Part shown: positions 3,648 to 58,319 of the stretch, piece after piece
Position numbering within the stretch: the stretch's first letter is position 1
Layout: each line of letters opens with the position of its first letter
IMG/VR virus record: IMGVR_UViG_3300044623_001154
Location: 1-64,000 of that record
Source: a virus
Lineage: Duplodnaviria > Caudoviricetes
DNA: 64,000 nt
Direction: 5' to 3' (one strand)
Notes under the pieces: generated by a model
The model's database searches: none
Told to the model about the DNA's origin: nothing
The model's input: only the letters and a program-made list of their open reading frames with translations
Made by a program: the position numbers and the translations under genes

Positions 3648-4514
3648 ATGAGTTATCCTGAAACATTTAAAAAAGGGTTTATTACTGAGATTGAGAAAGA
3701 ACTCAAAAAATGTGAGATAATCTATAACCCAAACACAAAAGGTATTTGGTTTGTTAACCGAGAAGAAAAATATTGGTACTTAGAATATAAAATAGAAAGT
3801 AACTATCTATGGTGGAGATATGAATTTTTTAATATGTTAAAAACCTTATTTTCTATGCCTGATGAGGTATTTAATGATGTAATCTCTGAGTGGGTGGAAG
3901 ACACCCTAAATTGTAAGGTACTCTCAATCCACCACGTGTATTTTACATCTTCCACATTGGTGGAAGAGACCCTAAATTGTAAGGTACTCAAAATAGATGA
4001 AAGAAATTTCCCCCAAAATAAATTGGTGGAAGACACCCTAAATGGTAAGGTAGTCACAACTTGGTTGACTCCAGCAGAAAAAAATCCTTGGGTGGAAGAA
4101 ACCCTAAATATTAAGGTAGATTCAATGTGTGGTAGAAATGATGATTGGAATGAACAGGTGGAAGAAACACTAATTTGTAAGGTACTCAAAACAATAAGAA
4201 GAGACGGTTTTAAAGAATCTTCGGTGGAAGACACACTAAATTGTAAGGTACTCACAACGGCCCATTTCGAAAGTAAATCCTTGTTCAGGGTGGAAGAAAC
4301 CCTAAATTGTAAGGTACTCAAAACAAATCTAAAAAACACTGCAGATATATATGCGGTGGAAGAGACCCTAAATTGTAAGGTACTCAAAACTAGGTATGAG
4401 CTACAAAACGATGGGATAAAGGTGGAACAGACCCTAAATTGTAAGGTAGTCTCAACACAGAACCATTCATTAAAACAAATTGAATTGGTGGAAGAGACAC
4501 TAAATTTAAAATAA
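3648..4514 (+). CDS. Phage paralog-family domain fused in frame to a translated CRISPR-like array (22-aa repeats VEETLNCKVLKT + 10 variable aa)
   Basis: 288-aa ORF; unique N-terminal ~80 aa, then 9 full 66-nt units; stop codon lies inside the terminal repeat. Confidence 0.8.
   Translation: MSYPETFKKGFITEIEKELKKCEIIYNPNTKGIWFVNREEKYWYLEYKIESNYLWWRYEFFNMLKTLFSMPDEVFNDVISEWVEDTLNCKVLSIHHVYFTSSTLVEETLNCKVLKIDERNFPQNKLVEDTLNGKVVTTWLTPAEKNPWVEETLNIKVDSMCGRNDDWNEQVEETLICKVLKTIRRDGFKESSVEDTLNCKVLTTAHFESKSLFRVEETLNCKVLKTNLKNTADIYAVEETLNCKVLKTRYELQNDGIKVEQTLNCKVVSTQNHSLKQIELVEETLNLK
3893..4514 (+). CRISPR. CRISPR-like array: 10 repeats (consensus GGTGGAAGAVACCCTAAATTGTAAGGTACTCAMAAC, 36 nt) and 9 unique 30-nt spacers; no cas genes in window
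   Basis: Repeats start at 3893, 3959, 4025, 4091, 4157, 4223, 4289, 4355, 4421, 4487 (exact 66-nt period); spacers mutually unrelated; internal dyad ACCCTA..TAAGGT; last repeat truncated. Confidence 0.75.
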
Positions 4515-4570
4515 CGAGGGCAAATCTTACCCCTATTAAAATAACGAGAGTAATAAATACATCTGAAATT

Positions 4571-29835: not shown

Positions 29836-30225
29836 ATGGAAATTAATAGAAAACACATTTATTTAATTGATAGTATCTTTAACACATTTTTTCCAGGTGT
29901 TGAGTATGTTATTGAATCTGAGAATAGTTTAGTGTATTTGTATAATATTCGTTTAACAAACGCTATAGGTAAAATATACGACCCAATGTCATTTGACCCC
30001 ATATATAGATTTAGTTCAAATACGTATTATAGTGAAAATGATTTTATAATAGTATTTCGTGAATTCGCAGTTTCGTTATCAGGTTTAATCTTAGTGTATT
30101 ATCCTCATTTAAATGACAACAAAAAAACTTCAATAATTGTTACACCAAGTCAAACAAAAAATAGAGACTACGGAATATATGCCGCAATTACTGACCCACA
30201 TAAAAATAGATTTGAAAATCATTAA
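29836..30225 (+). CDS. Hypothetical protein
   Basis: 129-aa ORF. Confidence 0.6.
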   Translation: MEINRKHIYLIDSIFNTFFPGVEYVIESENSLVYLYNIRLTNAIGKIYDPMSFDPIYRFSSNTYYSENDFIIVFREFAVSLSGLILVYYPHLNDNKKTSIIVTPSQTKNRDYGIYAAITDPHKNRFENH

Positions 30226-30262
30226 CAGTTTAAAAAAAATAAACATCAATTATATTTAAGTT

Positions 30263-30448
30263 ATGGATAATGAACAAAAAGCAGCAATTTACGGACGACT
30301 TCTAAATGAGCACACGAGGTTACAAAATGAAATTTCCTCAGTTAAAGGAGAATCTTTTGATTTGAATACTGAACAAAGAAATAGAATTAAACAACTTGAG
30401 CAAACGCAAATAAGAATTATGAACGATATTAATCGTTTATTACGTTAA
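30263..30448 (+). CDS. Small coiled-coil protein
   Basis: Heptad pattern; followed by a terminator. Confidence 0.65.
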   Translation: MDNEQKAAIYGRLLNEHTRLQNEISSVKGESFDLNTEQRNRIKQLEQTQIRIMNDINRLLR

Positions 30449-30499
30449 TCTAAACCCCACCCATGAGTGGGGTTTTTAATTTTACGGATATTTATTAAT

Positions 30500-30925
30500 A
30501 TGAAAATAATAATTACTGAAAGACAATATCGACAATATAAATCATTATTAGAACAAAGTGTTTATGATGAAGAAGATGACGATGATGATAATTACTTGAA
30601 TAATTATCGTAGTGCAGAACCTTTCGATAAAGAAGGTATGGTTGTTAAAGGTGAAGTTGGTTCAATACCAATCAAGTTTACATATTCTGAAGAGAATACT
30701 ACTGAGAATGGGGAAATCGAATATTTCGGTGAAATCCAATTTTATGGTGACGAATTTTTAGGGATAATAATAACCGACAAACGTGGTTATTTAGTTAACG
30801 TTGATTTTTATTCAACACTATCTGATGATGACGTTAGATTACAAAAAGTATTAAAAGAAATGGGTCTTTATTTTGAATTTGAACATTGGATAGATTCAAC
30901 AGTAATCCCACAAATCCAAGATTAA
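30500..30925 (+). CDS. MKIIITE leader protein
   Basis: MKIIITERQY...LLEQ. Confidence 0.75.
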   Translation: MKIIITERQYRQYKSLLEQSVYDEEDDDDDNYLNNYRSAEPFDKEGMVVKGEVGSIPIKFTYSEENTTENGEIEYFGEIQFYGDEFLGIIITDKRGYLVNVDFYSTLSDDDVRLQKVLKEMGLYFEFEHWIDSTVIPQIQD

Positions 30926-30927
30926 TT

Positions 30928-31224
30928 ATGAATGAGTTAGAAAAAATTAAGTATTTGTTTCAATACAAAAAAGGTGTTGTAATTAGTGAACAAACGATTC
31001 CACCCCCACCACCTGATACTGTGGGACCTACGTCAGGAGCGACTTCAGGTGATACATCAGCGGTTACAACAACGACAACAACAGTTAAACCTGTTAGTCC
31101 TGATAAATTGAGGGATTGTTCAGGATTTAATTCGGGAGGTAAACTAACTAAAGGTGAGGAAACAAAAGAGTTTATCATCTTTAACAATGAAAAAGGAATA
31201 CCCGTTTGTAAAAAAACAAAATAG
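30928..31224 (+). CDS. Leader-variant protein (VISEQ) with Pro/Thr-rich linker
   Basis: MNELEKIKYLF.YKKGVVISEQ, PPPPP, TTTTTT. Confidence 0.7.
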   Translation: MNELEKIKYLFQYKKGVVISEQTIPPPPPDTVGPTSGATSGDTSAVTTTTTTVKPVSPDKLRDCSGFNSGGKLTKGEETKEFIIFNNEKGIPVCKKTK

Positions 31225-31271
31225 AAATTTAAACCCCTTGATTATCGAGGGGTTTTTTATTATGGTTATGT

Positions 31272-31571
31272 ATGGAGAATCTTAACGTATTATACCAAAA
31301 CATTAATCGGTTAACTAAAATAAAGTATTCTGAAGTAAATGGGGTTTCAATAAAACTTGAACATCGTAGTAATCCATTCAATCCTATAGGTAAGTATGAT
31401 TATAAGATTGTGGTATTTGAGGTTGATATAAATGATGAAACTCCTTTTAGTAAAACATTATTACAAGAGATTAGTAACCATATTGGAATAATTGTTAAAA
31501 TGTTATTATCTGAATGTGATTTTATTAGGGTATATTTCAACGGTATATTACAATGTAACCCCTCTTATTAA
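31272..31571 (+). CDS. Hypothetical protein
   Basis: 99-aa ORF. Confidence 0.6.
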   Translation: MENLNVLYQNINRLTKIKYSEVNGVSIKLEHRSNPFNPIGKYDYKIVVFEVDINDETPFSKTLLQEISNHIGIIVKMLLSECDFIRVYFNGILQCNPSY

Positions 31572-31604
31572 AAAATTAACTATTTATAACAATACTATTG
31601 AATT

Positions 31605-31787
31605 ATGGAAAACCAAGTAGAGAGACAGATTAATGAATTAGAAAAATTAATTTTGTTTTATGAGAATTTAGGTGAAACTAACAATCACATTGAGAATTAC
31701 AAAAAACAATTATTCATTCAATTAGATGAATTAAAGAACCCAAAGGTGGAAACTACCGATGAAAAACAAAATCAAACTGAGGTTTAA
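31605..31787 (+). CDS. Small hypothetical protein
   Basis: ORF after TATTTATA. Confidence 0.55.
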   Translation: MENQVERQINELEKLILFYENLGETNNHIENYKKQLFIQLDELKNPKVETTDEKQNQTEV

Positions 31788-32127
31788 TTTAGGTAGGGGA
31801 AAAAACTACCTTAAATGGAAAATTGAATATCCTAATTCAAAACCAATGTATCTTGACCCTAGTGAAGTTAAATTGGTTTTGGAAGGGTGTTTATTAAAAA
31901 ACTACAAGAAGACGGCACAACGTATATATGACGGGTCAAATAAGACCGTATGTTCTTGGGTTATCTGTGATAATATCACTATTAATGAACCAACACCTCA
32001 TCTTGGTGGAAAGGTTATATCTTATAACCCCAAATTAAATCCTTATTGGGTTTACGAGGGGAACGATGCCGATAATTTTACGTTTGAAACTATAATCTCA
32101 GATGGTGGAGAATTATTCGTTATTTAA
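31759..32127 (+). CDS. Conserved phage hypothetical protein
   Basis: RFNLGRG.NY.KW...A..I..G.NKTVCSW..C...ISYNP motif. Confidence 0.7.
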   Translation: MKNKIKLRFNLGRGKNYLKWKIEYPNSKPMYLDPSEVKLVLEGCLLKNYKKTAQRIYDGSNKTVCSWVICDNITINEPTPHLGGKVISYNPKLNPYWVYEGNDADNFTFETIISDGGELFVI

Positions 32128-32138
32128 TATTTATTAAT

Positions 32139-32579
32139 ATGAAAATACTAATCACTGAAAATAAATTTAAAGATGCAATTAAATTAAGTTTAAAAGAGTT
32201 AGGAACTGAATCAACAATTGATAATGTTGGTGGGTGGGAGAACTTTTGTAAAGTAATGAACATTGAGGGTTTTATGGATTTCTTACACTTATTTGATGAT
32301 TTGGAACAAGTTCAATCTGAGGAAAGAGAACATTGGACGTTATTTCGTTATAAAAAAGGTAATAACTTAATGGTTTACGATAGAAAAAGTAAGGAAGTTT
32401 ACATTAGTAAAAAAGAAATTTGGTCGTTTTTGGGCGGTAAATTTGATTTAACTTATCCTGTTGTTCAGGCAGTTACAAAGAAGTGGTTGGGTGAGGTCTA
32501 CAATTTGAGGGGAATCAGAACAGAAATTACAACCACAAACAACCGAAGCCCCTACAAAGGTTCGTGCCAAATTACTTAA
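32139..32579 (+). CDS. MKILITE leader protein (GG module + W-x-x-E domain) ending in a CRISPR-like repeat
   Basis: C-terminal W|LGEVYNLRGIRT is encoded by a 36-nt GTTG...AAC repeat. Confidence 0.8.
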   Translation: MKILITENKFKDAIKLSLKELGTESTIDNVGGWENFCKVMNIEGFMDFLHLFDDLEQVQSEEREHWTLFRYKKGNNLMVYDRKSKEVYISKKEIWSFLGGKFDLTYPVVQAVTKKWLGEVYNLRGIRTEITTTNNRSPYKGSCQIT

Positions 32580-32650
32580 AGGGGAATCACAACAGAAATT
32601 ACAAACACAAACAACCTCAGTTAGTTGGGTGAGGTATAGAATTTAAAATA
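32486..32650 (+). CRISPR. Degenerate CRISPR-like mini-array, repeat GTTGGGTGAGGTCTACAATTTGAGGGGAATCASAAC (36 nt)
   Basis: Full repeat 32486-32521; partial repeat ending GGGGAATCACAAC at 32593; exactly 30-nt spacer 32594-32623; terminal truncated repeat at 32624. Confidence 0.6.
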
Positions 32651-32689
32651 TTTATTGATATTCAAGTTGACTTTATTTATTATTGATTA

Positions 32690-32923
32690 ATGAAACAATC
32701 AATTGTCGAACAATTTTTCAAAATAATGTACCCCGACTTAGATATTAAAATCAAAAACTATGAATTAATGCCAAGATTTGATTTTAATGAGAAGGGACAA
32801 TTTGTAGAAGGTGATTCGGCTATATTTATAGATGTTATTACTAATAGTTTATTTGACGAATATCTTGTTGGTAATGAATTAACACAATTTACAGGTTATG
32901 AATTTTCAATAACCAGATGTTAA
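32690..32923 (+). CDS. Small hypothetical protein
   Basis: 77-aa ORF. Confidence 0.6.
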   Translation: MKQSIVEQFFKIMYPDLDIKIKNYELMPRFDFNEKGQFVEGDSAIFIDVITNSLFDEYLVGNELTQFTGYEFSITRC

Positions 32924-32935
32924 AAAAATATTAAA

Positions 32936-33211
32936 ATGAGAACACTATTAGAAACGGCTTATTCAAATTATTTAACTCAGGTTGAAAGTACTCTTACAAT
33001 TGAAGAATTTAAATATAAATTAACGATTGACGATACATTTGACTCAGAATGGTCTAATGGTTGTACAAGAACATTAACTTTTGATGAAAGATATGCTTTA
33101 GGTGAATCCATTGAAGATGTTAGAGTTGCAAAAGTTCAAAAATACGGGGAGGCTTATATAACAGTATATCTAAATGAATTTAACATACCTAAACGAGACA
33201 TTATAAACTAA
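32936..33211 (+). CDS. Small hypothetical protein
   Basis: 91-aa ORF. Confidence 0.6.
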   Translation: MRTLLETAYSNYLTQVESTLTIEEFKYKLTIDDTFDSEWSNGCTRTLTFDERYALGESIEDVRVAKVQKYGEAYITVYLNEFNIPKRDIIN

Positions 33212-33227
33212 TTAAAACTTACATACT

Positions 33228-34601
33228 ATGAAAAGACTATTTTTATTAATTACAATTTTGCTGGTTTCACAATTCTTATCGGCACAATATTGTGGAATAG
33301 CTACTACAAATGTTGCAATAACACCAACTACTACTGTACAATATAGTACGACATATAGTTCTGGTAGGAGAGCATTTAATTTTGTAGCCACTGCTGGTAG
33401 TGAATATACATTTTCAACAGTAGGACAATCAACTGTTGATACCTACCTTAGATTATATTCTACAGGTACGGGTGGTACACTTTTAGCAGAAAGTGACGAT
33501 TATAATAATACCCAATCTGAAATAACATGGTATTGTTCAACTTCTGGAACTTATTCTGTGTTACTTACTAGATGGACATCAAGCAATACGTGTGCTGCTC
33601 TTAATGGAAATGCTCGTATTAAATACCAAAAGGGTAATTCTAGCGGAGGTACCGTTGTAAGTATTGGTGGTGGAGAAGTCAGTGATTACAATGTTCCTGC
33701 AAATCATTATTACAAATATGGATGGACAGATATGATTTATCTACAATCAGAAATTAATACTGTTGGTAGTATTACAAAAATTCGTTTTCAAGTTGACCCA
33801 TTAACTGCGATTCCTTATACGGCAACAAATCAAAAGATTTATATGGGTCACACCACATTATCATCATTTCCATCTTCTACAGTAAAAGAGAATGCTCAAA
33901 CGAATTACGTATCTTCCAATTATACATTAGTGTATGACGGGACTGTAAGTTGGACAGTTGGGTGGGTTGAAATTGTGTTACAAACTCCTTTCCCTTGGAA
34001 TAACACAAATAATTTACTTATTAAGTGGGAAAATAGAAATAATGCCTATACATTTGATGAACCATGGTTTTATTATACATCAAAAACCAATACAGTTGCA
34101 TATAAAGTTTTAGATGCTTCATACCCTACTGCTGATGGTGTGAGAGGTAGTTTAAGACCTAACATTAAAATTGCATTAGCCGACCCAGTTGGATTACCTA
34201 TTGAATTATTATACTTTAAAGGTAAAAAAATGGATGATGGTAATTTATTAGAGTGGGAATCAGCAACTGAATTAAATAATGATTACTACACGATTTATAG
34301 AAGTAACTATCCAATTGATTGGGCCGAAATTGTTAAAATTGATGGTGTCGGAACATCAACCTTTTCCAACCACTATCACTATTTAGATAGAGATTTTTCA
34401 AATGATGTCAATTACTACTATTTGACTCAAACTGATTTTGATGGTAAAACAAAAAAATATGAAATCATATCAATTGATAATCGTTATATTGTTTCTGAAT
34501 TAGTTCGTATAACCAATATATTAGGTCAAGATATTAATTTTGATACACCTGGTTTAAAAATATTTTATTACACTGACGGAACAATTGTTAAACGATATTA
34601 G
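33228..34601 (+). CDS. Secreted beta-rich protein (PPC-like domain) with Bacteroidota T9SS cargo-type C-terminus
   Basis: Signal peptide; DTYLRLY..LAESDD (PPC-like); LPIELLYF...LEWESATELNNDYY; C-terminal ITNILGQ..GLKIFYYTDGTIVK. Confidence 0.75.
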   Translation: MKRLFLLITILLVSQFLSAQYCGIATTNVAITPTTTVQYSTTYSSGRRAFNFVATAGSEYTFSTVGQSTVDTYLRLYSTGTGGTLLAESDDYNNTQSEITWYCSTSGTYSVLLTRWTSSNTCAALNGNARIKYQKGNSSGGTVVSIGGGEVSDYNVPANHYYKYGWTDMIYLQSEINTVGSITKIRFQVDPLTAIPYTATNQKIYMGHTTLSSFPSSTVKENAQTNYVSSNYTLVYDGTVSWTVGWVEIVLQTPFPWNNTNNLLIKWENRNNAYTFDEPWFYYTSKTNTVAYKVLDASYPTADGVRGSLRPNIKIALADPVGLPIELLYFKGKKMDDGNLLEWESATELNNDYYTIYRSNYPIDWAEIVKIDGVGTSTFSNHYHYLDRDFSNDVNYYYLTQTDFDGKTKKYEIISIDNRYIVSELVRITNILGQDINFDTPGLKIFYYTDGTIVKRY

Positions 34602-34647
34602 ACACCATTCATTTTTTTTACTATCTTTATAAAAAAAAAGATGGACA

Positions 34648-35034
34648 ATGGACAAGAATGAAATGGACCAATTTTTAGAATCAATTGGTGGTTTAGAAAA
34701 CGGATTTTTTACAGATAGAGAACCTATCGTCGATAGTGGATTCTTTGGTGTTAATCAAGGATGGTTCCCAATAATAAAATCCTTAATCGAAGACTTAATC
34801 AAATTGGGGTGGGACAAACAAATTACTCAAGTTAAAGAGAAGTTTGGTGGTCTAAGATTTTATATCAACTCAGGTAGTGATGAAATCCATCAAAGAATAT
34901 TACAGGCTGAAAACGAAAGTTACGAGACTTGTGAGGTTTGTGGTAAACATGGTGAACTAAGAAAAGATATTGGATGGTATTTCACATTATGTGATGAACA
35001 TTATAACCTTAAAAAAAATAAAAATGAAATTTGA
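34648..35034 (+). CDS. Conserved phage protein with C-terminal Zn ribbon
   Basis: GW..II..L, QVKEKFGGLRFY, TCEVCG...TLCDEH. Confidence 0.75.
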   Translation: MDKNEMDQFLESIGGLENGFFTDREPIVDSGFFGVNQGWFPIIKSLIEDLIKLGWDKQITQVKEKFGGLRFYINSGSDEIHQRILQAENESYETCEVCGKHGELRKDIGWYFTLCDEHYNLKKNKNEI

Positions 35035-35212
35035 TTTATCTGAAGAACAAATCACTAAATTAGATGAGTGGAAAAAAGCAATTAAAATTGTTTATGGTGA
35101 ATATGGTTTATTCACATATAGTTTCTCACCAACAGGTATTGGTACAAGTGTTGAAGTATTCAGTGATATTGCAAAGACATCAATTGATTTAACAGAAATT
35201 GATAAGTGGTAA
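35024..35212 (+). CDS. Small phage hypothetical protein
   Basis: G.FTYSF.PTGIG...IDLTE.D.W motif. Confidence 0.65.
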   Translation: MKFDLSEEQITKLDEWKKAIKIVYGEYGLFTYSFSPTGIGTSVEVFSDIAKTSIDLTEIDKW

Positions 35213-35490
35213 AAAAAATAGAAACTATGATAAAATTAGGACTGATTAACTATGAAGGTGATTGTTTAAGAGCAATTAAGAAAGGTGATAAAATAATTAT
35301 CAAAGACCAACACGGTGAAGAATTAGAAACGACAAATGTTAAAGGTTTGTTAGAGTTCTTAGATGGTTATAGAAATATAACTGATAGTGAAGGTAAAAGT
35401 TGGGATTATAATGACGTACATAAAGACGCCAAACCTAAGTATTTAAAAATATACGAATTTTTAATCAAATTTCCCAAGGAAGATTTATGA
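35206..35490 (+). CDS. Hypothetical protein
   Basis: Coupled ORF. Confidence 0.6.
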   Translation: MVKKIETMIKLGLINYEGDCLRAIKKGDKIIIKDQHGEELETTNVKGLLEFLDGYRNITDSEGKSWDYNDVHKDAKPKYLKIYEFLIKFPKEDL

Positions 35491-35520
35491 GGTAATAACT
35501 AATTATATTAAAAGAAAAAT

Positions 35521-36162
35521 ATGATTAGATTTATTTTATTATTATGTACGATGGTAAGTTTACCATTGTTTGGTCAATACAAAGTTGATACAACAATTAT
35601 AAACGAGGCTTACACATCTTACGTTAATAAAGAATTGGGACAGGCATTATATGTCAAATACAAGTTATATAAAGGGGGTGGAAAGTGTCTAAGAGCCTCC
35701 AATTGGGTAAACGATACAAAACTAATTTTAGTTAATGAGAACCAATATAAAGGGACTCTATACGATAAAGGACATTTGGCTAACGCTGAAGATTTTGCTT
35801 ACAATTGTCATCTTGATTCGTTAACGTTTAGAGATTATAATAGATTACCACAAATAAGAAAATTAAATCGAGGTCTTTGGAAAACAACTGAAACCGAAAT
35901 TAGAAAAATGTCTCAGACCGATTCGTTAATGATTTATACTGGCGGATATTGGGGAACCCCAAATATAGTTGTGAATGGAATGAAAGTTCCTTCAATTTGT
36001 TGGAAGGTAGTTTATAGTTTATCATTAAAAAAAGTTGTACTGTGCTCATTGTTTTATAACAACGACACACCTGTTAAAACTGATACTAACTTAGGGAATC
36101 TTGAATTAATGTTAGGGTTTTCTTTAGGTGTTTATACTGAATCAAAAAAAAAGAAAAAGTAA
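35521..36162 (+). CDS. Secreted DNA/RNA non-specific endonuclease (NucA/EndA family)
   Basis: Signal peptide; YDKGHLA, N..PQ...LNRGLW...E, VP...WKVVY. Confidence 0.88.
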   Translation: MIRFILLLCTMVSLPLFGQYKVDTTIINEAYTSYVNKELGQALYVKYKLYKGGGKCLRASNWVNDTKLILVNENQYKGTLYDKGHLANAEDFAYNCHLDSLTFRDYNRLPQIRKLNRGLWKTTETEIRKMSQTDSLMIYTGGYWGTPNIVVNGMKVPSICWKVVYSLSLKKVVLCSLFYNNDTPVKTDTNLGNLELMLGFSLGVYTESKKKKK

Positions 36163-36163
36163 T

Positions 36164-36370
36164 ATGACCAAATTTAAAAATGTGAGTTTGGAAATCTCCA
36201 ATAAATTGTCTACATTGCAATATGAATGGGGAGATATCTCGGATATCGGAAATGAAATTGGGATTATCCTTGGTAAATACATTGATGAAAATGACCAAGG
36301 ATGGGATAAGGATAGCTTTATTGCTGGTTTAAATCACGGTATATCTCACACAGACGGAACACATTGTTAA
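36164..36370 (+). CDS. Small hypothetical protein
   Basis: ATG 36164. Confidence 0.55.
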   Translation: MTKFKNVSLEISNKLSTLQYEWGDISDIGNEIGIILGKYIDENDQGWDKDSFIAGLNHGISHTDGTHC

Positions 36371-36386
36371 ATTAAATAAAAATAGT

Positions 36387-36974
36387 ATGAAAAAGTTAGT
36401 ATTCGGTATTTGTTTGATGTTATCATCATTAATTTTTGGACAAGGGGATGGTGAAGACATACCTTATTACGAATTGTATTGGATTAAAACTGTAACATTT
36501 GGTGATAATACTATTGAAAAAGTTAGGCTAATTCAGGGCGACCCAAGTCCTGAATATTTTAAAAAAGAAAACATCACTAAGTGGGACACTATTGGTGTGT
36601 TATCGTATATGGGGAGACAAGTTATTGATTCATTAAACAAACTTAGAGTTAGTGAAGGATTATCCGTGATTACTAATGATGATGAGTTTGCCGAAGATGA
36701 ATACGGTTATGCTGAAGAAAGTATCTTTGATTTTTACGGTAGAAGACAAACACCTTTGATGGTAACCGACATCTATTATGATACGGGTGAATGTACTTGT
36801 GTTAATGACATTATTGCCGAAATAACATCACATAAAGATATTATGAAACGAGTATTATCTAAACGAAATAAAGTGTTAAATGTTTGTGTTCTTTTAGATA
36901 AAAAAACAAATGAGTTTAACATATACATCCAAGTAAAAAGATTATTCACTTTAAGTTATTTCATAGGTAATTAG
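36387..36974 (+). CDS. Secreted protein, degenerate CAP-like
   Basis: Signal peptide; LNKLRVSEGL ... SH..IM..VLS. Confidence 0.55.
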   Translation: MKKLVFGICLMLSSLIFGQGDGEDIPYYELYWIKTVTFGDNTIEKVRLIQGDPSPEYFKKENITKWDTIGVLSYMGRQVIDSLNKLRVSEGLSVITNDDEFAEDEYGYAEESIFDFYGRRQTPLMVTDIYYDTGECTCVNDIIAEITSHKDIMKRVLSKRNKVLNVCVLLDKKTNEFNIYIQVKRLFTLSYFIGN

Positions 36975-36975
36975 T

Positions 36976-37179
36976 ATGAAGAAAAAAAGATTTAAGATTG
37001 ATATCCCTGAAAAAATAATCGGAATGTCATTTAACAACGCTAAAGTTTATTGTTTATCTGAAGGTTATAGATTATATTTACCAGAAGATAACACGGGTGA
37101 TTTAAATATCACTTATATTATAACGGTTAAAGAAACTGACAGTGATGGTAAAATTTTAAAAGCGAATTACGGAATATGA
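36976..37179 (+). CDS. Small hypothetical protein
   Basis: IIGMSF..A..YC...GY.. Confidence 0.55.
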   Translation: MKKKRFKIDIPEKIIGMSFNNAKVYCLSEGYRLYLPEDNTGDLNITYIITVKETDSDGKILKANYGI

Positions 37180-37880
37180 AGAAAAAGATTGTGGTATTCA
37201 CAGGTGCTGGTGTCTCAAGGGAGAGTGGTGTCCTAACATTCCGAGATAGTGTTGATGGATTGTGGGAAAATCATAATATTGACGATGTTTGTACTCCTTC
37301 AGGTTGGAAGAAAGACCGTGAGAAAGTATTGAACTTTTATAACGATAGACGTAGACAATTACCAACAGTTGAACCAAACTCAGCACATACTGATTTGGTT
37401 AAATTAGAGGACAAATATGACGTAACAATCGTTACCCAAAATGTTGACGACCTACATGAAAGAGCGGGTTCATCAAAGATATTACATTTACACGGTGAGT
37501 TGACTAAGGCTCGTGGGTCTTTATCTACTAATCAAGATACCATTCGTGATATTGGATATGGTGATATTAATATTGGGGATAAGTGTAAATACGGTTCACA
37601 AGTAAGACCCCACATTGTTTGGTTTGAAGAAATGCCGTTCAACGTTGAGGAAAGTTACGACGCAATTATTGATACGGATGTCTTAATTATAATCGGAACT
37701 AGTTTGATGATTGGTTATACTTTGAATTTATTATCAAGTGTTAGTGATGATTGTAAAATATATTACATTGACCCCCAACCAAGTAGATACTTAGACAAGT
37801 ATGGTAAAAATGTTACTTACATTGAGAAACCAGCAACAGAGGGGGTGATGTCAGTTGTTAATGAATTAATGAATGAATAA
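37176..37880 (+). CDS. cobB: NAD-dependent protein deacylase (sirtuin, CobB-like)
   Basis: TGAGVS.ESG..TFR, PN.AH, TQNVDDLHERAG, HLHG, RPHIVWF.E, IGTSL. Confidence 0.92.
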   Translation: MKKKIVVFTGAGVSRESGVLTFRDSVDGLWENHNIDDVCTPSGWKKDREKVLNFYNDRRRQLPTVEPNSAHTDLVKLEDKYDVTIVTQNVDDLHERAGSSKILHLHGELTKARGSLSTNQDTIRDIGYGDINIGDKCKYGSQVRPHIVWFEEMPFNVEESYDAIIDTDVLIIIGTSLMIGYTLNLLSSVSDDCKIYYIDPQPSRYLDKYGKNVTYIEKPATEGVMSVVNELMNE

Positions 37881-38263
37881 TGGGAGAAAAGTTACCTGAT
37901 AGTTATGTTCCTGATAGAAGTCTAAAAACATATCCGACTGAAATTGGTTCACAATCATTTGAACCTGATAATATTGAATTATTTAAGTTAGATAAAACTC
38001 AAAACTTAAAACATCATTATGTTACGAAGTTTGAAGAAATTAAATCTGAATATGAAAAATTAATGAATGAGATTCAGGTAAATGAACGGGTTTATAAATC
38101 AAAATATAACTTCATACCTGTTGTCGGTTATCATTATTATCTTTATATTGATGGTGATAAAGAATTCCTTTCAATTATCACACCTGATGAGTGGGGTAAT
38201 AAATTTGGATTCATTGGGAAGTATGTCTTACAGTCAGATGGTAGATGGTTAGAAATTAAATAA
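37880..38263 (+). CDS. DUF2452-like protein
   Basis: YPTE.GS..F.P...Y.F.PV.G..YYLY....FLS.I.P.EW. Confidence 0.7.
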   Translation: MGEKLPDSYVPDRSLKTYPTEIGSQSFEPDNIELFKLDKTQNLKHHYVTKFEEIKSEYEKLMNEIQVNERVYKSKYNFIPVVGYHYYLYIDGDKEFLSIITPDEWGNKFGFIGKYVLQSDGRWLEIK

Positions 38264-38271
38264 TTTGAAAT

Positions 38272-38679
38272 ATGAAAAGAAACATACCTGATATGAGCAA
38301 CCAATTGTTGTTCTATATGGATAAGTGGGGTGAAAAAGGAAACAAGTCTGACCGAACTCCTGAAAAGTATGAGGAAACTATGATTAATCTTGAGAAGAAG
38401 ATTGAGAAGGATATGATTGGGGTTTTATCTAAAATGGGGGTTAATGCTAGTGTTAAGTCTGACAGATATTCATTACCATTTCAGGACCAAATTAAAACGA
38501 CACAACATGGTGAATCGTATTTGAATGGTGCGTTCGAATCAATTAAATTATATCGTGCGGTACTACATAAAATGGTTGACCTGAATGTTTATAAAGTTAG
38601 ATTTTATATCTTTGCTGAGGTTGAAGATTCATTCCCGATGGGTAAAGTAAATTACTACTTCAACTATTATATTCATTAA
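38272..38679 (+). CDS. Hypothetical protein
   Basis: 135-aa ORF. Confidence 0.65.
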   Translation: MKRNIPDMSNQLLFYMDKWGEKGNKSDRTPEKYEETMINLEKKIEKDMIGVLSKMGVNASVKSDRYSLPFQDQIKTTQHGESYLNGAFESIKLYRAVLHKMVDLNVYKVRFYIFAEVEDSFPMGKVNYYFNYYIH

Positions 38680-38910
38680 AATGAGTGTTGCGATAATTAA
38701 ATCGAAAAAGGTTGAAAAACATAATGATGTTTTCATACTTCACGTTGGTTTTAAACACTATGATTTAGGTGTTCAAATTCATAGTTGGGGTGTTAGATTT
38801 ATGTTTATTTGGTGGCATGTTTGCATACATTTAAAATGAATGAAGAAATTAATATTAAAGTTTTCGTTATGGTTATATTATAAATTACCTAAACGTAAAA
38901 GAAAAAGTGT

Positions 38911-39117
38911 GTGGGATTTATGAATATACCTGAAAATGAAAGAACGTTTAATGATATCTATGATGAAATTGTTAATGATTTAAAAGGTAATCTAACCTCA
39001 GATGAATACAAAGAATTAATAACCCTTGAATACGTTCTTACTTGGGGATATAACGAACCAAGTGATTCCAAAAGATATGACGAATTAAGAAATAAAAAAT
39101 ATGAACTCATTAGATAA
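38911..39117 (+). CDS. Small hypothetical protein
   Basis: Overlaps thyA start. Confidence 0.55.
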   Translation: MGFMNIPENERTFNDIYDEIVNDLKGNLTSDEYKELITLEYVLTWGYNEPSDSKRYDELRNKKYELIR

Positions 39118-40315
39118 ACAATACACAGATTTACTTCAAACCATATTAGATTATGGGGTTGGAAAGAAAGATAGAACAGGTACGGGAACTAAATCTATCT
39201 TTGGTTATACCATTCGTCATAATATGAAGGACGGATTTCCTTTGCTCACGACAAAACGAATGCCGTTCCGTCTCATAGCAACAGAGTTAATTTGGTTCCT
39301 TCGTGGTGATACAAACATTAAATTCCTGGTTGATAATGATTGTCATATTTGGGATGGTGATGCGTATAAAAAATATTCAAACCATTTTATCGGATATGAA
39401 GATGTGCCAAATAAAGAATGGTTTATTGAAAGAATAAAAACAGATGATGAGTTTGCTAACAAGTGGGGTGAGTTAGGTCCAATTTATGGTAAGCAATGGA
39501 GAAGATGGACTAAAAAGAAAATGTATTTATCTACGGATGGTTCATATGAAAAAATCTTTGATGAAATGGACCAAACAGTTATTGACCAAATCGCTATCTT
39601 AATCAACGACCTTAAAACAAATCCAGACTCAAGACGATTAATGGTTAATGCGTGGAATGTTGGAGAATTGGATTCAATGGTACTTCCACCTTGTCATTAT
39701 GGATTTCAAGTTTATACAAGAGAGTTGAGTGAGAAAGAAAGGCATAATCTTTTAAAAAAATACAAAGGGTTATTATGTTATGATGGTATAGGAAATGTTA
39801 TGGAATACTATGATTCTATTAATATCCCTAAACGAGCAATCTCATTAATGTGGAATCAACGTTCAGTAGATACATTTTTAGGTTTACCATTTAACATCGC
39901 ATCTTATGGATTGTTATTGGAAATCATTGCTAAAACAGTTAATATGGTTCCTGATGAATTGATTGGAAACTTGGGTGATACTCATCTATATTCAAATCAT
40001 ATTGAACAAGCAAAAGAACAAATTGGTAGAGAATTACGAGTTGATGAAAGAGTTTGTATGTGTTATGAAAACCCCAAATTAGATTTGTCTAAGATACAGG
40101 AAGGAATGAGTGATGAAGAATTCACAAAAGTTTGTGATGAATTTAATATTCCGACAAGAACGAGAACACCATTTGAATTACCGACATTAGTAATATCTAA
40201 TCAAGTTAATTTTAATGAAGGGATTGATGAGTTTTTAAATAGTTGTTTAATCACTGATTTTGTTATTAAGAATTACCAATCACACGGAACTATCAAAGCT
40301 CCATTATCAAATTAA
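39101..40315 (+). CDS. thyA: Thymidylate synthase (long form with insertions)
   Basis: DRTGTGT, FPLLTTK, ELIWFLRG, LGPIYG.QWR, SRRL.VNAWN, LPPCH, QRSVD.FLGLPFNIASY, GDTHLY.NH. Confidence 0.97.
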   Translation: MNSLDKQYTDLLQTILDYGVGKKDRTGTGTKSIFGYTIRHNMKDGFPLLTTKRMPFRLIATELIWFLRGDTNIKFLVDNDCHIWDGDAYKKYSNHFIGYEDVPNKEWFIERIKTDDEFANKWGELGPIYGKQWRRWTKKKMYLSTDGSYEKIFDEMDQTVIDQIAILINDLKTNPDSRRLMVNAWNVGELDSMVLPPCHYGFQVYTRELSEKERHNLLKKYKGLLCYDGIGNVMEYYDSINIPKRAISLMWNQRSVDTFLGLPFNIASYGLLLEIIAKTVNMVPDELIGNLGDTHLYSNHIEQAKEQIGRELRVDERVCMCYENPKLDLSKIQEGMSDEEFTKVCDEFNIPTRTRTPFELPTLVISNQVNFNEGIDEFLNSCLITDFVIKNYQSHGTIKAPLSN

Positions 40316-57302: not shown

Positions 57303-58319
57303 ATGAGCAAAGTAATAAGATTAACCGAGTCCGATTTGGTTAGACTAGTTAAAAAAGTTATATCCGAACAACCCAAAATTAGTAATCCCAAAATTAGTAA
57401 TGATTGGATGACCAATTTGAAAAATTCTGGTAAAAATCAAAGTGTATGTCCCATAGGGTTTAGACAAATGACACAACAAGAAATAAGTTCTTACTCTAAA
57501 AAATTGGTTAAACCTTGGTCTAATACAACTGACGGGACGGGTGACTATATATATAAAAACGCGAATACTATATGTAAAAGTACAGCACCTAAAGGTGAAG
57601 CTAAAAAGCTTCCAAATCCCTTTCAAGGTTTAACATTGGAACAAGTTGCGAATGGATTTAGAGATGCTATGAGTGGTGTTGGTGGAAGCATTGCACAAAT
57701 TGTTATATCACTCTTTGGTGGTCACGTAATAAATATGGTTGCTTGGGGATTATTAGTTGCTTATGATATTTATTCTTGGGTACAAAAAGGGGTCGTTAAT
57801 TGGTTTAACCTTCTTAACGATTTAATTTGGTTATTGTTGGCAGGTGTTGGTGGTAAAATAATGGGGGCTCTTAAACCTATATTGAAAGGTGAAACTAAAT
57901 TAATAAACATCTTCACAAAAGCGTCTAAAACAACTTGGTGGAGTCATCTTAAACTGTTTTTAACCAAAATTAGTAGTTACGGTTCTAAAGTAATATTGCA
58001 AATTAGACAAGCGATAAGTGCGATAATAAATAAAGTTCCTACATTAAAAAGTCTGTTAAACCCATTATTGGGGATAATTAATCGTGTTGGTGGTGTTTTA
58101 ACCAGAATTGAACAAACTTTTGTGGAATTTAGTAAAATTAAACCTGTTATGAAAGTTGCTAAAGTGGTTAAACCTATGGTTAAACCTGTTACGACAGTTG
58201 CTAAAGTGCTTAAACCTATGGTTAAACCTGTTGTAAAAGTTGCCAAAGAATACGTCAAAGGAGATATTCAAAGTAGGGTGGTAAATACTGGATTAAATGC
58301 TGGATTTGGTAAAACATAG
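57303..58319 (+). CDS. IRLTESDL leader protein with TM helices and basic KP(V/M)VK repeats
   Basis: Leader; central hydrophobic helices; C-terminal KPVMKVAKVVKPMVKPV repeats. Confidence 0.8.
   Translation: MSKVIRLTESDLVRLVKKVISEQPKISNPKISNDWMTNLKNSGKNQSVCPIGFRQMTQQEISSYSKKLVKPWSNTTDGTGDYIYKNANTICKSTAPKGEAKKLPNPFQGLTLEQVANGFRDAMSGVGGSIAQIVISLFGGHVINMVAWGLLVAYDIYSWVQKGVVNWFNLLNDLIWLLLAGVGGKIMGALKPILKGETKLINIFTKASKTTWWSHLKLFLTKISSYGSKVILQIRQAISAIINKVPTLKSLLNPLLGIINRVGGVLTRIEQTFVEFSKIKPVMKVAKVVKPMVKPVTTVAKVLKPMVKPVVKVAKEYVKGDIQSRVVNTGLNAGFGKT

Follow-up and report, generated by a model that had tools for sequence, protein, structure and literature searches.

In a large phage of Flavobacteria type, a gene of a large unnamed family, the open reading frame (ORF) 32139..32579 on the plus strand of the 64,000-nucleotide (nt) stretch analyzed here, ends in a repeat locus (32486-32650) that resembles a small CRISPR array. 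Judging from sequence, and with a probability of about 0.5, we read this locus as a partly decayed member of a widespread set of orphan phage mini-arrays, in which repeats like those of type VI-B (Cas13b) CRISPR systems sit at mRNA 3' ends and would act as a Cas13b decoy similar to an RNA anti-CRISPR (Racr) or an extraneous CRISPR RNA (ecrRNA). The layout recurs across the family. In this phage gene family, which is present in multiple copies, the first repeat sits in frame among the final ~12 codons; behind it come spacer-like stretches of ~30 nt, and the array finishes with a terminal repeat that breaks off after base 21. The stretch, which we call the window, spans the opening 64 kb of an IMG/VR virus record that is 72,977 nt long, has 31% G+C and is rated 26% complete by CheckV.

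On the plus strand, the locus opens with R1, an intact, type VI-B-like repeat of 36 nt (GTTGGGTGAGGTCTACAATTTGAGGGGAATCAGAAC, 32486..32521), whose first G doubles as the third base of a conserved TGG Trp codon (32484..32486). R1 is followed by a spacer-like segment of 38 nt (32522..32559), a decayed repeat, R2 (32560..32593), a second spacer-like segment (32594..32623) and a truncated terminal repeat, GTTGGGTGAGGTATAGAATTTAAAATA (32624..32650). The only intact part of R2 is its 3' end, GGGGAATCACAAC (32581-32593), and the stop codon of the gene (32577-32579) falls inside it. No more than the 3' 13-15 nt of R2 are recognisable, the profile matches are weak (nhmmer finds 32579-32593 at E 2.6, a covariance model scores 9.1 bits at E 7.5), and the unit there measures 72 nt, not 66. 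The second segment fills exactly 30 nt between GGGGAATCACAAC and GTTGGGTGAGGTATAGAATTTAAAATA, and the first 23 nt of segment 1 are a near-copy of 32594-32616. The terminal repeat consists of 21 repeat nt, GTTGGGTGAGGTATAGAATTT, with two mismatches, and then AAAATA; its tail, AATTTAAAATA, also ends the array of a paralogous gene, which finishes in ..CTAAATTTAAAATAA at 4487-4514. A first-pass annotation of this DNA, made from the sequence alone, had pointed out the Trp-codon register, the 30-nt interval, the near-copied spacers and the shared cut and tail of the two array ends, and each of these holds. Its description of the locus as a CRISPR-like mini-array stands in part. Repeat parts recur far beyond chance: the 36-mer at 32509-32544 reappears at 32581-32616 with two mismatches, the 5' 21 nt of the repeat occur at 32486 and, with two mismatches, at 32624, and in either case two matches were reached in 0 of 100 shuffles. 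The full 36-nt repeat, within three mismatches, occurs once in the window. The locus is thus one intact, one decayed and one truncated repeat, a worn-out array and not a regular 66-nt one. A terminator-like site was looked for across 31500-33300 and none was found.

The paralogous gene (3648..4514, plus strand, 288 aa) carries the other repeat type of the family. Its 3' two-thirds (3893-4514) is a 10-unit array with a 66-nt period, maintained as one open frame whose units have 22 residues (VEETLNCKVLKT and 10 variable ones); up to ~16 such units are present in a related locus, L020. A family hidden Markov model (HMM), built from the 75 residues up to the Trp and leaving out the repeat-coded residues, matches both window genes (32139..32579 at E 5.5e-33, 3648..4514 at E 9.1e-13). 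The paralogy suggested by the first-pass annotation is therefore recovered even though pairwise BLASTP between the two proteins gives no significant match (E 23). The ORF 32139..32579 also starts with the MKILITE leader that had been ascribed to it, and at least two repeat types can be told apart, the 3893 type and the 32486 type; intermediates between them occur, for instance the array in locus L074. One 3893-type spacer is common to the window and L022, at different array positions. A distant BLAST search of GenBank phages (INPHARED) with the array at 3880-4520 returned no match.

Gene ends of this kind are found well beyond the window. A 21-nt pattern taken from R1 retrieved 17 IMG/VR stretches. 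In nearly all of them a gene end ..W leads into the 36-nt repeat, and a truncated repeat comes 29-31 nt later; 3-4 repeats are present in some. A three-copy pattern retrieved 44 metagenome stretches; a consensus scan shows arrays of the 32486 kind in 28 of these, the largest having eight near-identical repeats (L074) and seven (L082), and no array in the other 16. Of these 16, four (L068, L083, L084 and L091) match the family HMM and have divergent repeats, and five (L060, L061, L062, L067 and L099) were rejected on inspection, as they hold unrelated repeats. Over all fetched viral and metagenome loci we count 77 arrays, and 74 of the 77 begin at the third base of a TGG Trp codon; in the remaining three, which belong to the other repeat type, the detector misplaced the start. 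A single full repeat is all that is present in 34 of the 77. Among the 62 unique arrays, 44 have the terminal repeat cut after base 21 and followed by AAAA..., as at 32624 and 4487. The fetched arrays hold 148 spacers (138 unique) with a modal length of 30 nt. The spacing typical of type VI-B arrays is thus seen across the family and partly in the window locus, which has one 30-nt spacer, one 38-nt segment and the 23-nt duplicates.

Searching at the protein level, without recourse to the DNA patterns, we recovered 667 clusters at E<=0.001 out of 731 candidates; every cluster is metagenomic, and Pfam domains are absent from all of them. In 119 of the 120 best protein homologues the motif W-L-[GD]-E-V-Y-N-L-R-G-[IV]-T-T, or a close variant, is present and is followed by unrelated residues; family members without the repeat keep W-L/A-x-D/E-x-Y/F-N/G-L/I. 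The proposal that a repeat within coding sequence is a recurring architecture of this protein family, and that an HMM of the domain should find homologues with expanded arrays, is borne out by these searches, with up to eight full repeats in the 32486 type (L074). The genes of L010 and L014 end in W-L-G/D-E/D-V/T-Y-N-L-K.., their first repeat being already in the truncated form, which is the remnant that recombination between a first and a terminal repeat would be expected to leave.

We compared the phage repeat to CRISPR repeats of bacteria. For this we used a two-copy pattern in which 17 positions of R1 are fixed and which was partly guided by a repeat assumed beforehand; a scan of 185,579 species genomes with it found 20 arrays. 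By record title, 19 of the 20 are from Bacteroidota (Bergeyella, Capnocytophaga, Chryseobacterium, Riemerella, Aquimarina and others), and the two that were checked both adjoin Cas13b (E 7.7e-202 and 1.9e-238), one together with Csx28. The twentieth, L029, is a 12-repeat array of the Bacteroidota Cas13b type on a contig titled as a Synechococcus metagenome-assembled genome (MAG); Cas13b was not found in the 4.3-Mb genome of that MAG, and the contig may be mis-binned. Because the pattern was partly guided in this way, we built an independent set of 10 repeats from Cas13b loci, using Cas13b protein-family searches of 401 family-level genomes (Cas13b in 5) and 401 order-level genomes (in 7), plus further Cas13b loci. 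A weight matrix of these 10 Cas13b-adjacent repeats was used to score all 127,930 positions of the window, counting the two strands. Ranks 1-9 are taken by eight repeats of the first array (that of 3648..4514) and by R1, at 13.1-28.7 bits, with R1 third at 22.0, and all nine keep the exact 36-nt register, in sense orientation. Below them come the reverse complement of R1 itself, at 8.8 bits, and the best unrelated site, at 4.4 bits. Identity of at least 24/36 to a Cas13b-adjacent repeat is reached at eight positions of the window, all of them repeats (R1, 24/36). With a control matrix of 36-nt type II-C repeats, from eight Cas9 loci of the same sampled bacterial family, R1 falls to rank 1,943 with at most 16/36 identity. 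The first-pass remark that the GTTG..CAAC ends look like Cas13b direct repeats is supported by these ranks; its further idea, that the repeat types may be matched to different host CRISPR systems, is not, as no near-identical host repeat was found. The best pattern-found host array agrees with the phage consensus at 27/36 positions and with R1 at 25/36, 17 of these positions being fixed by the pattern.

In overall form, too, the phage arrays are similar to the type VI-B arrays of Flavobacteriales and Bacteroidales. They have a 36-nt repeat, ~30-nt spacers (period 66) and the sense orientation; the repeat ends are 5' GTTG.. and ..CA(C/G)AAC 3', with a central T-run that gives way to a G-run; and, in its 3' half, the 3893-type repeat all but matches a Cas13b-adjacent Aquimarina repeat (17/18 over the last 18 nt). 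Unlike VI-B arrays, they have no cas13b, csx27/28 or cas1 that could be found nearby or on the phage records searched, the first repeat is inside coding sequence, in place of a leader, and the terminal repeat is cut at base 21, repeat identity is ~67% and the hairpin is weakened. In an uncultured Aquimarina genome (L045), two Cas13b-type arrays flank cas13b, each after the same ~40-nt leader, which places the leader 5' of the GTTGG end of the repeat.

Since R1 is translated, we asked whether the periodicity is a property of the protein. In the ORF 32139..32579 (146 aa), the translation near the end reads ...KKW LGEVYNLRGIRT..., and codons 116-128 (W116..T128) are encoded by the repeat and form the last folded segment of the protein. 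An AF2 model from 40 homologues (mean predicted local distance difference test, pLDDT, 81.5) has W116-Y121 finishing the last helix, residues 127-131 as a strand and the spacer-coded tail, 134-146, disordered, so that R1 is predicted to encode folded protein. This folded segment would fit an ordinary protein tandem repeat, whose periodicity is a C-terminal structural repeat unrelated to CRISPR, as would the 3893-type arrays (window 3648-4514, L020, L021, L022 and L023): these are strictly in frame, with all unit spacings 66 nt apart from one of 63, and have 0 stops in 373 spacer codons in the gene frame versus 4-10% in the five other frames. One-frame, stop-free units are thus a feature of the 3893 type, and the 32486 type lacks it. 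The 104 unique spacers between full repeats of the 32486 type are 29, 30, 31, 32 or 33 nt long (16, 43, 33, 11 and 1 cases) and shift later repeats into all three frames, and the reading frame stops inside the array. Stops in the gene frame number 42 in 1156 spacer codons, versus 50-78 of 1085-1156 in other frames. Variable spacer length and unpurged stops together argue that the 32486 type is a nucleotide repeat, not a protein repeat. The C-termini of 119 homologues use three readings of the second repeat (..VG-stop in 46, W.R.TI-stop in 21, ..YNLK-stop in 8, other endings in 44), the internal repeats that are out of frame are still nearly identical within arrays, and similarity is confined to the 36-nt constant parts and absent among the variable segments. 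For the 32486 type the protein-repeat reading is already contradicted by these observations. Chance similarity, the other form of this explanation, has against it the in-register, sense-strand match to Cas13b and not II-C repeats, a level that no unrelated position of the 127,930 reaches. Taken as a whole, we consider an explanation unconnected to CRISPR highly improbable. In frame, the terminal stump reads ..YNLK-stop, which suggests either an ancestral gene end or a standard degenerate terminal repeat.

Constraint on the repeat appears at both levels. In 58 of 58 gene ends compared, a biased sample, the Leu after the Trp is TTG and the Asn is AAT. Third-codon-position conservation compares as 0.71 versus 0.54, a difference that is skewed by the use of repeat patterns to retrieve the loci. 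Some of the conservation belongs to the protein level, as the repeat-coded residues lie in the predicted fold and members without the repeat keep W-L-x-E-x-Y/F-N-L. The repeat is thus under double constraint, of protein and of nucleotide sequence.

A decoy function would work as follows. Cas13b binds to the hairpin formed by the repeat and cleaves at the 3' end of the repeat, and the mature CRISPR RNA (crRNA) is a spacer followed by a repeat, as described in the available part of PMC13187072. The phage repeat would be transcribed as an mRNA 3' end in the sense orientation that Cas13b uses, and, given the spacer-then-repeat order and the cut at the repeat 3' end, an mRNA ending in one intact repeat would load host Cas13b with a harmless guide, namely sense sequence of the gene itself. 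Repeat-bearing mRNA may in this way soak up Cas13b, in the manner of an ecrRNA or a Racr. The same part of PMC13187072 reports that RNA of the leader and first repeat, when over-expressed in trans, sequesters Cas13b and lowers phage defence ~1000-fold. Where only a spacer and then a stump follow the intact repeat, as in 34/77 arrays and in practice in the window locus, no crRNA can come from that spacer, which favours a decoy over a guide there; longer arrays could supply guides. The spacer-like segments may be relics of occasional insertion by host Cas1-Cas2 and of recombination between repeats, since decayed at 32486-32650, and the diversity of spacers would imply insertion events in phage DNA. 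In F. columnare, the VI-B array uses the II-C Cas1 in trans according to the portion of PMC8092290 at hand, and Cas9 loci are frequent in the sampled bacterial family (90/401).

Several results weigh against a Cas13b decoy. The host repeats have a conserved hairpin of 11 consensus pairs, of which R1 keeps 6, and pairs 11-26 and 15-22 are present in ~1% of 107 phage repeats. The minimum free energy of R1 is -2.5 kcal/mol versus -4.7 to -16.6 for host repeats. An alternative scheme of seven pairs can form in 79-99% of phage repeats, with hardly any covariation. A covariance model of the 10 host repeats did not list R1 among its 32 matches at E<=10, so the type II/VI covariance match that the first-pass annotation had named as a check fails for R1; the best match of that model is the first-array repeat at 4421-4456, weak at E 0.039, and nhmmer gives R1 an E of 5.4. 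In silico, phage repeats pair with any flank and not with themselves (2.9 intra-repeat pairs versus 12.3 for a host repeat), and R1 in the window is predicted to be sequestered by upstream coding sequence at -16.2 kcal/mol. This is not a family-wide upstream-repeat hairpin, which was looked for and not seen (11.3 pairs versus 10.6 with shuffled upstream sequence, p 0.49). The identity to known VI-B repeats, ~67%, is below the 90% used to call Racrs, and our pattern brought up no near-identical repeat in any host array of the 185,579 species genomes. Cas13b is rare in the sampled family genomes (5/401) and Cas9 common (90/401). None of the 77 arrays in the fetched loci is free-standing. On the RNA side, six metatranscriptome runs contain 5-15% of the sampled words, and RNA contigs of four runs cover 31700-32198 and 32711-32883 and not the array, which makes them uninformative on its expression. 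The search for cas genes counts on both sides: neither Cas13b nor Cas1 was found in the record itself (73 kb), in 66 loci (618 kb) or in five related records, one of which is 296 kb and rated 100% complete, the others being partial. That the arrays are orphans, on a virus without its own Cas13b effector, speaks for a decoy; the same result is also a weak point of that reading.

If the arrays worked instead as mini-CRISPR arrays, supplying phage guides (a spacer and the full repeat after it) for host Cas13b against competing phages or host transcripts, one would look to the 32486-type arrays with 2-8 full repeats and unique 29-33-nt spacers, which do exist, and to the turnover of spacers between related phages within conserved flanks, where one spacer is shared by the window and L022. 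Viral mini-array spacers mostly target related viruses, as stated in the accessible part of PMC11656645. We hold this use unlikely. Nearly half of the arrays (34/77) have only the sole spacer and truncated repeat that cannot form a spacer-repeat crRNA, the window locus is decayed, and no convincing protospacer was found in the scans made, which is a weak point of the decoy reading as well. A comparison of the 138 unique spacers to ~1 Mb of related loci gave one 25-nt match (E 0.19); no protospacers of the window arrays were found in GenBank phages; and four exact-core IMG/VR spacer scans gave 0, 1, 0 and 0 matches, the 23-nt core of segment 2 remaining unmatched. The one IMG/VR match (L101) has 21 exact nt (25/30) in a coding region of an unrelated phage; it is near chance level, as by our estimate ~0.1 chance matches are expected per scan, and it is in the sense orientation and could not pair with the mRNA. 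In the other direction, 417 host spacers from 19 host loci gave only partial matches of 13-24 nt to phage-type loci. Cas13b activation also arrests the cell and so would harm the resident phage (the part of PMC13187072 that treats activation).

The repeat might also be a fossil, left from a captured VI-B array and now serving, with no action on Cas13b, as a 3' diversifier or terminator (a recombination cassette, an mRNA 3' structure or a neutral sink for mis-integrated spacers), or having no use at all. The weak conservation of the hairpin and the failed covariance model fit such a history, as do the lack of a cognate host repeat in the pattern scan of species genomes, the terminal ..YNLK-stop that is similar to an ancestral gene end and the protein motif retained by family members without the repeat. 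We think it quite unlikely, since the internal repeats that are out of frame are near-identical (eight in L074, seven in L082), which argues for continuing nucleotide-level constraint or for very recent copying; the TTG and AAT codons are invariant in the biased sample of 58 gene ends; and copies are many per genome, with 18 repeat-like sites at ~8 places and on both strands of the 296-kb phage. An unrecognised phage-encoded effector or integrase, served by the arrays in place of host Cas proteins, could hide among the many genes of unknown function in huge phages, and spacer turnover implies integration activity on phage DNA. With no Cas13b or Cas1 in the 100%-complete record or the four partial ones, these two proteins being the ones searched for, we regard this as very improbable.

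Among known systems, the closest to a Cas13b decoy are the Racrs and viral solitary repeat units described in the available part of PMC10651486. Similar to these, the phage locus is a repeat mimic on a virus without cas genes, often with a single intact repeat, and the proposed action of Racrs, sequestering of Cas proteins, is the one we propose for the phage gene-end repeat. Racrs are, in the same source, small non-coding RNAs with their own promoter and at least 90% identity to the host repeat, whereas the phage repeat is an in-frame mRNA 3' end in multiple copies. The ecrRNAs of Cas13 arrays (PMC13187072, in the part available) offer a second likeness: upstream sequence and the first repeat give a crRNA-like RNA that is able to tie up Cas13b and weaken defence. 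In those arrays the RNA is an unwanted by-product of the host, suppressed by a leader-repeat hairpin; in the phage it would be the purpose. Virus-borne mini-CRISPR arrays in inter-virus conflict (PMC11656645, in part) likewise belong to viruses that lack cas genes and hold one or a few spacers flanked by host-type repeats, but their repeats are identical to those of the host and their spacers match related viruses, and neither was found for the phage arrays. The phage array lacks three features of these groups, namely host-repeat identity, a stand-alone RNA and the repeat hairpin. By analogy it would work like a Racr or a mini-array, and membership in either is not established.

The available text of PMC10651486 reports viral solitary repeats for all CRISPR types except type VI, with ORFs masked by the finder and an identity of at least 90% required. 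Our literature search found no description of Cas13b-type repeats inside phage coding sequences. What appears to be new is therefore Cas13b-type repeats in phage genes; viral solitary repeats and mini-arrays are already known. A Cas13b repeat mimic in the coding 3' ends of a family of >600 clusters would, if true, fill the type VI gap in the survey of mimics and show that ORF masking hides a whole class of repeat-mimic elements. AcrVIB1 is given as the only known Cas13b inhibitor in the part of a 2024 preprint available to us (10.1101/2024.11.17.623997). If host Cas1-Cas2 inserts the spacers, phage genomes record CRISPR adaptation events, and if the paralogous arrays are translated, adaptation-like insertion is linked to protein diversification. 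These threads can be joined into one larger proposal, which we offer as doubtful: huge Flavobacteriia phages would hold the first natural RNA mimics of the type VI (Cas13b) repeat, spread over dozens of gene ends in each genome; the mimics would also be live substrates for host spacer integration, with 30-nt inserts written into genes, and the translated 3893-type units would be a generator of hypervariable protein segments. The gene-end repeat elements are short, and heterologous Cas13b assays by which they can be tested directly already exist.

Searches with the gene product gave no further lead on its function. Against the PDB, a fold search with the AF2 model of the 32139..32579 protein returned nothing at E<=0.001 (best 0.14), and against BFVD only weak matches to uncharacterised phage proteins (best 3.2e-3). 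Pfam and PHROGs searches with the protein gave no match. Rfam had no family reaching its gathering score anywhere in the window, and only two chance-level matches at E<=10 in 32300-32800. Distant BLAST of gene and array together (32139-32660) against the INPHARED GenBank phages gave six chance-level matches only (E 0.1-0.5), and the sole DNA-level match of the stretch 30000-40000 to GenBank phages is the thymidylate synthase of Flavobacterium phages.

The gene lies in a cluster of small genes. Immediately upstream of it, the ORF at 31759-32127 has a sub-threshold Pfam match to mycobacteriophage L5 gp82 (PF25735, E 8.5e-4, 19.6 bits where the cut-off is 27), and directly 3' of the cluster is a 457-aa ORF (33228-34601) with a hydrophobic N-terminus. 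An MK[IVLF][IV][IL][TN]E start is shared by 12 ORFs on the 73-kb record, those in the window lying within 10122-32579. A G-rich hairpin that has a T-run lies ahead of many of these ORFs, together with the motif ATATTTAT..AATATG, and the combination is apparently a repeated terminator-promoter-start module. The strongest tandem repeat of the window (TRF score 173) is elsewhere, at 58138-58248, with a 42-nt unit, 2.6 copies and 88% matches.

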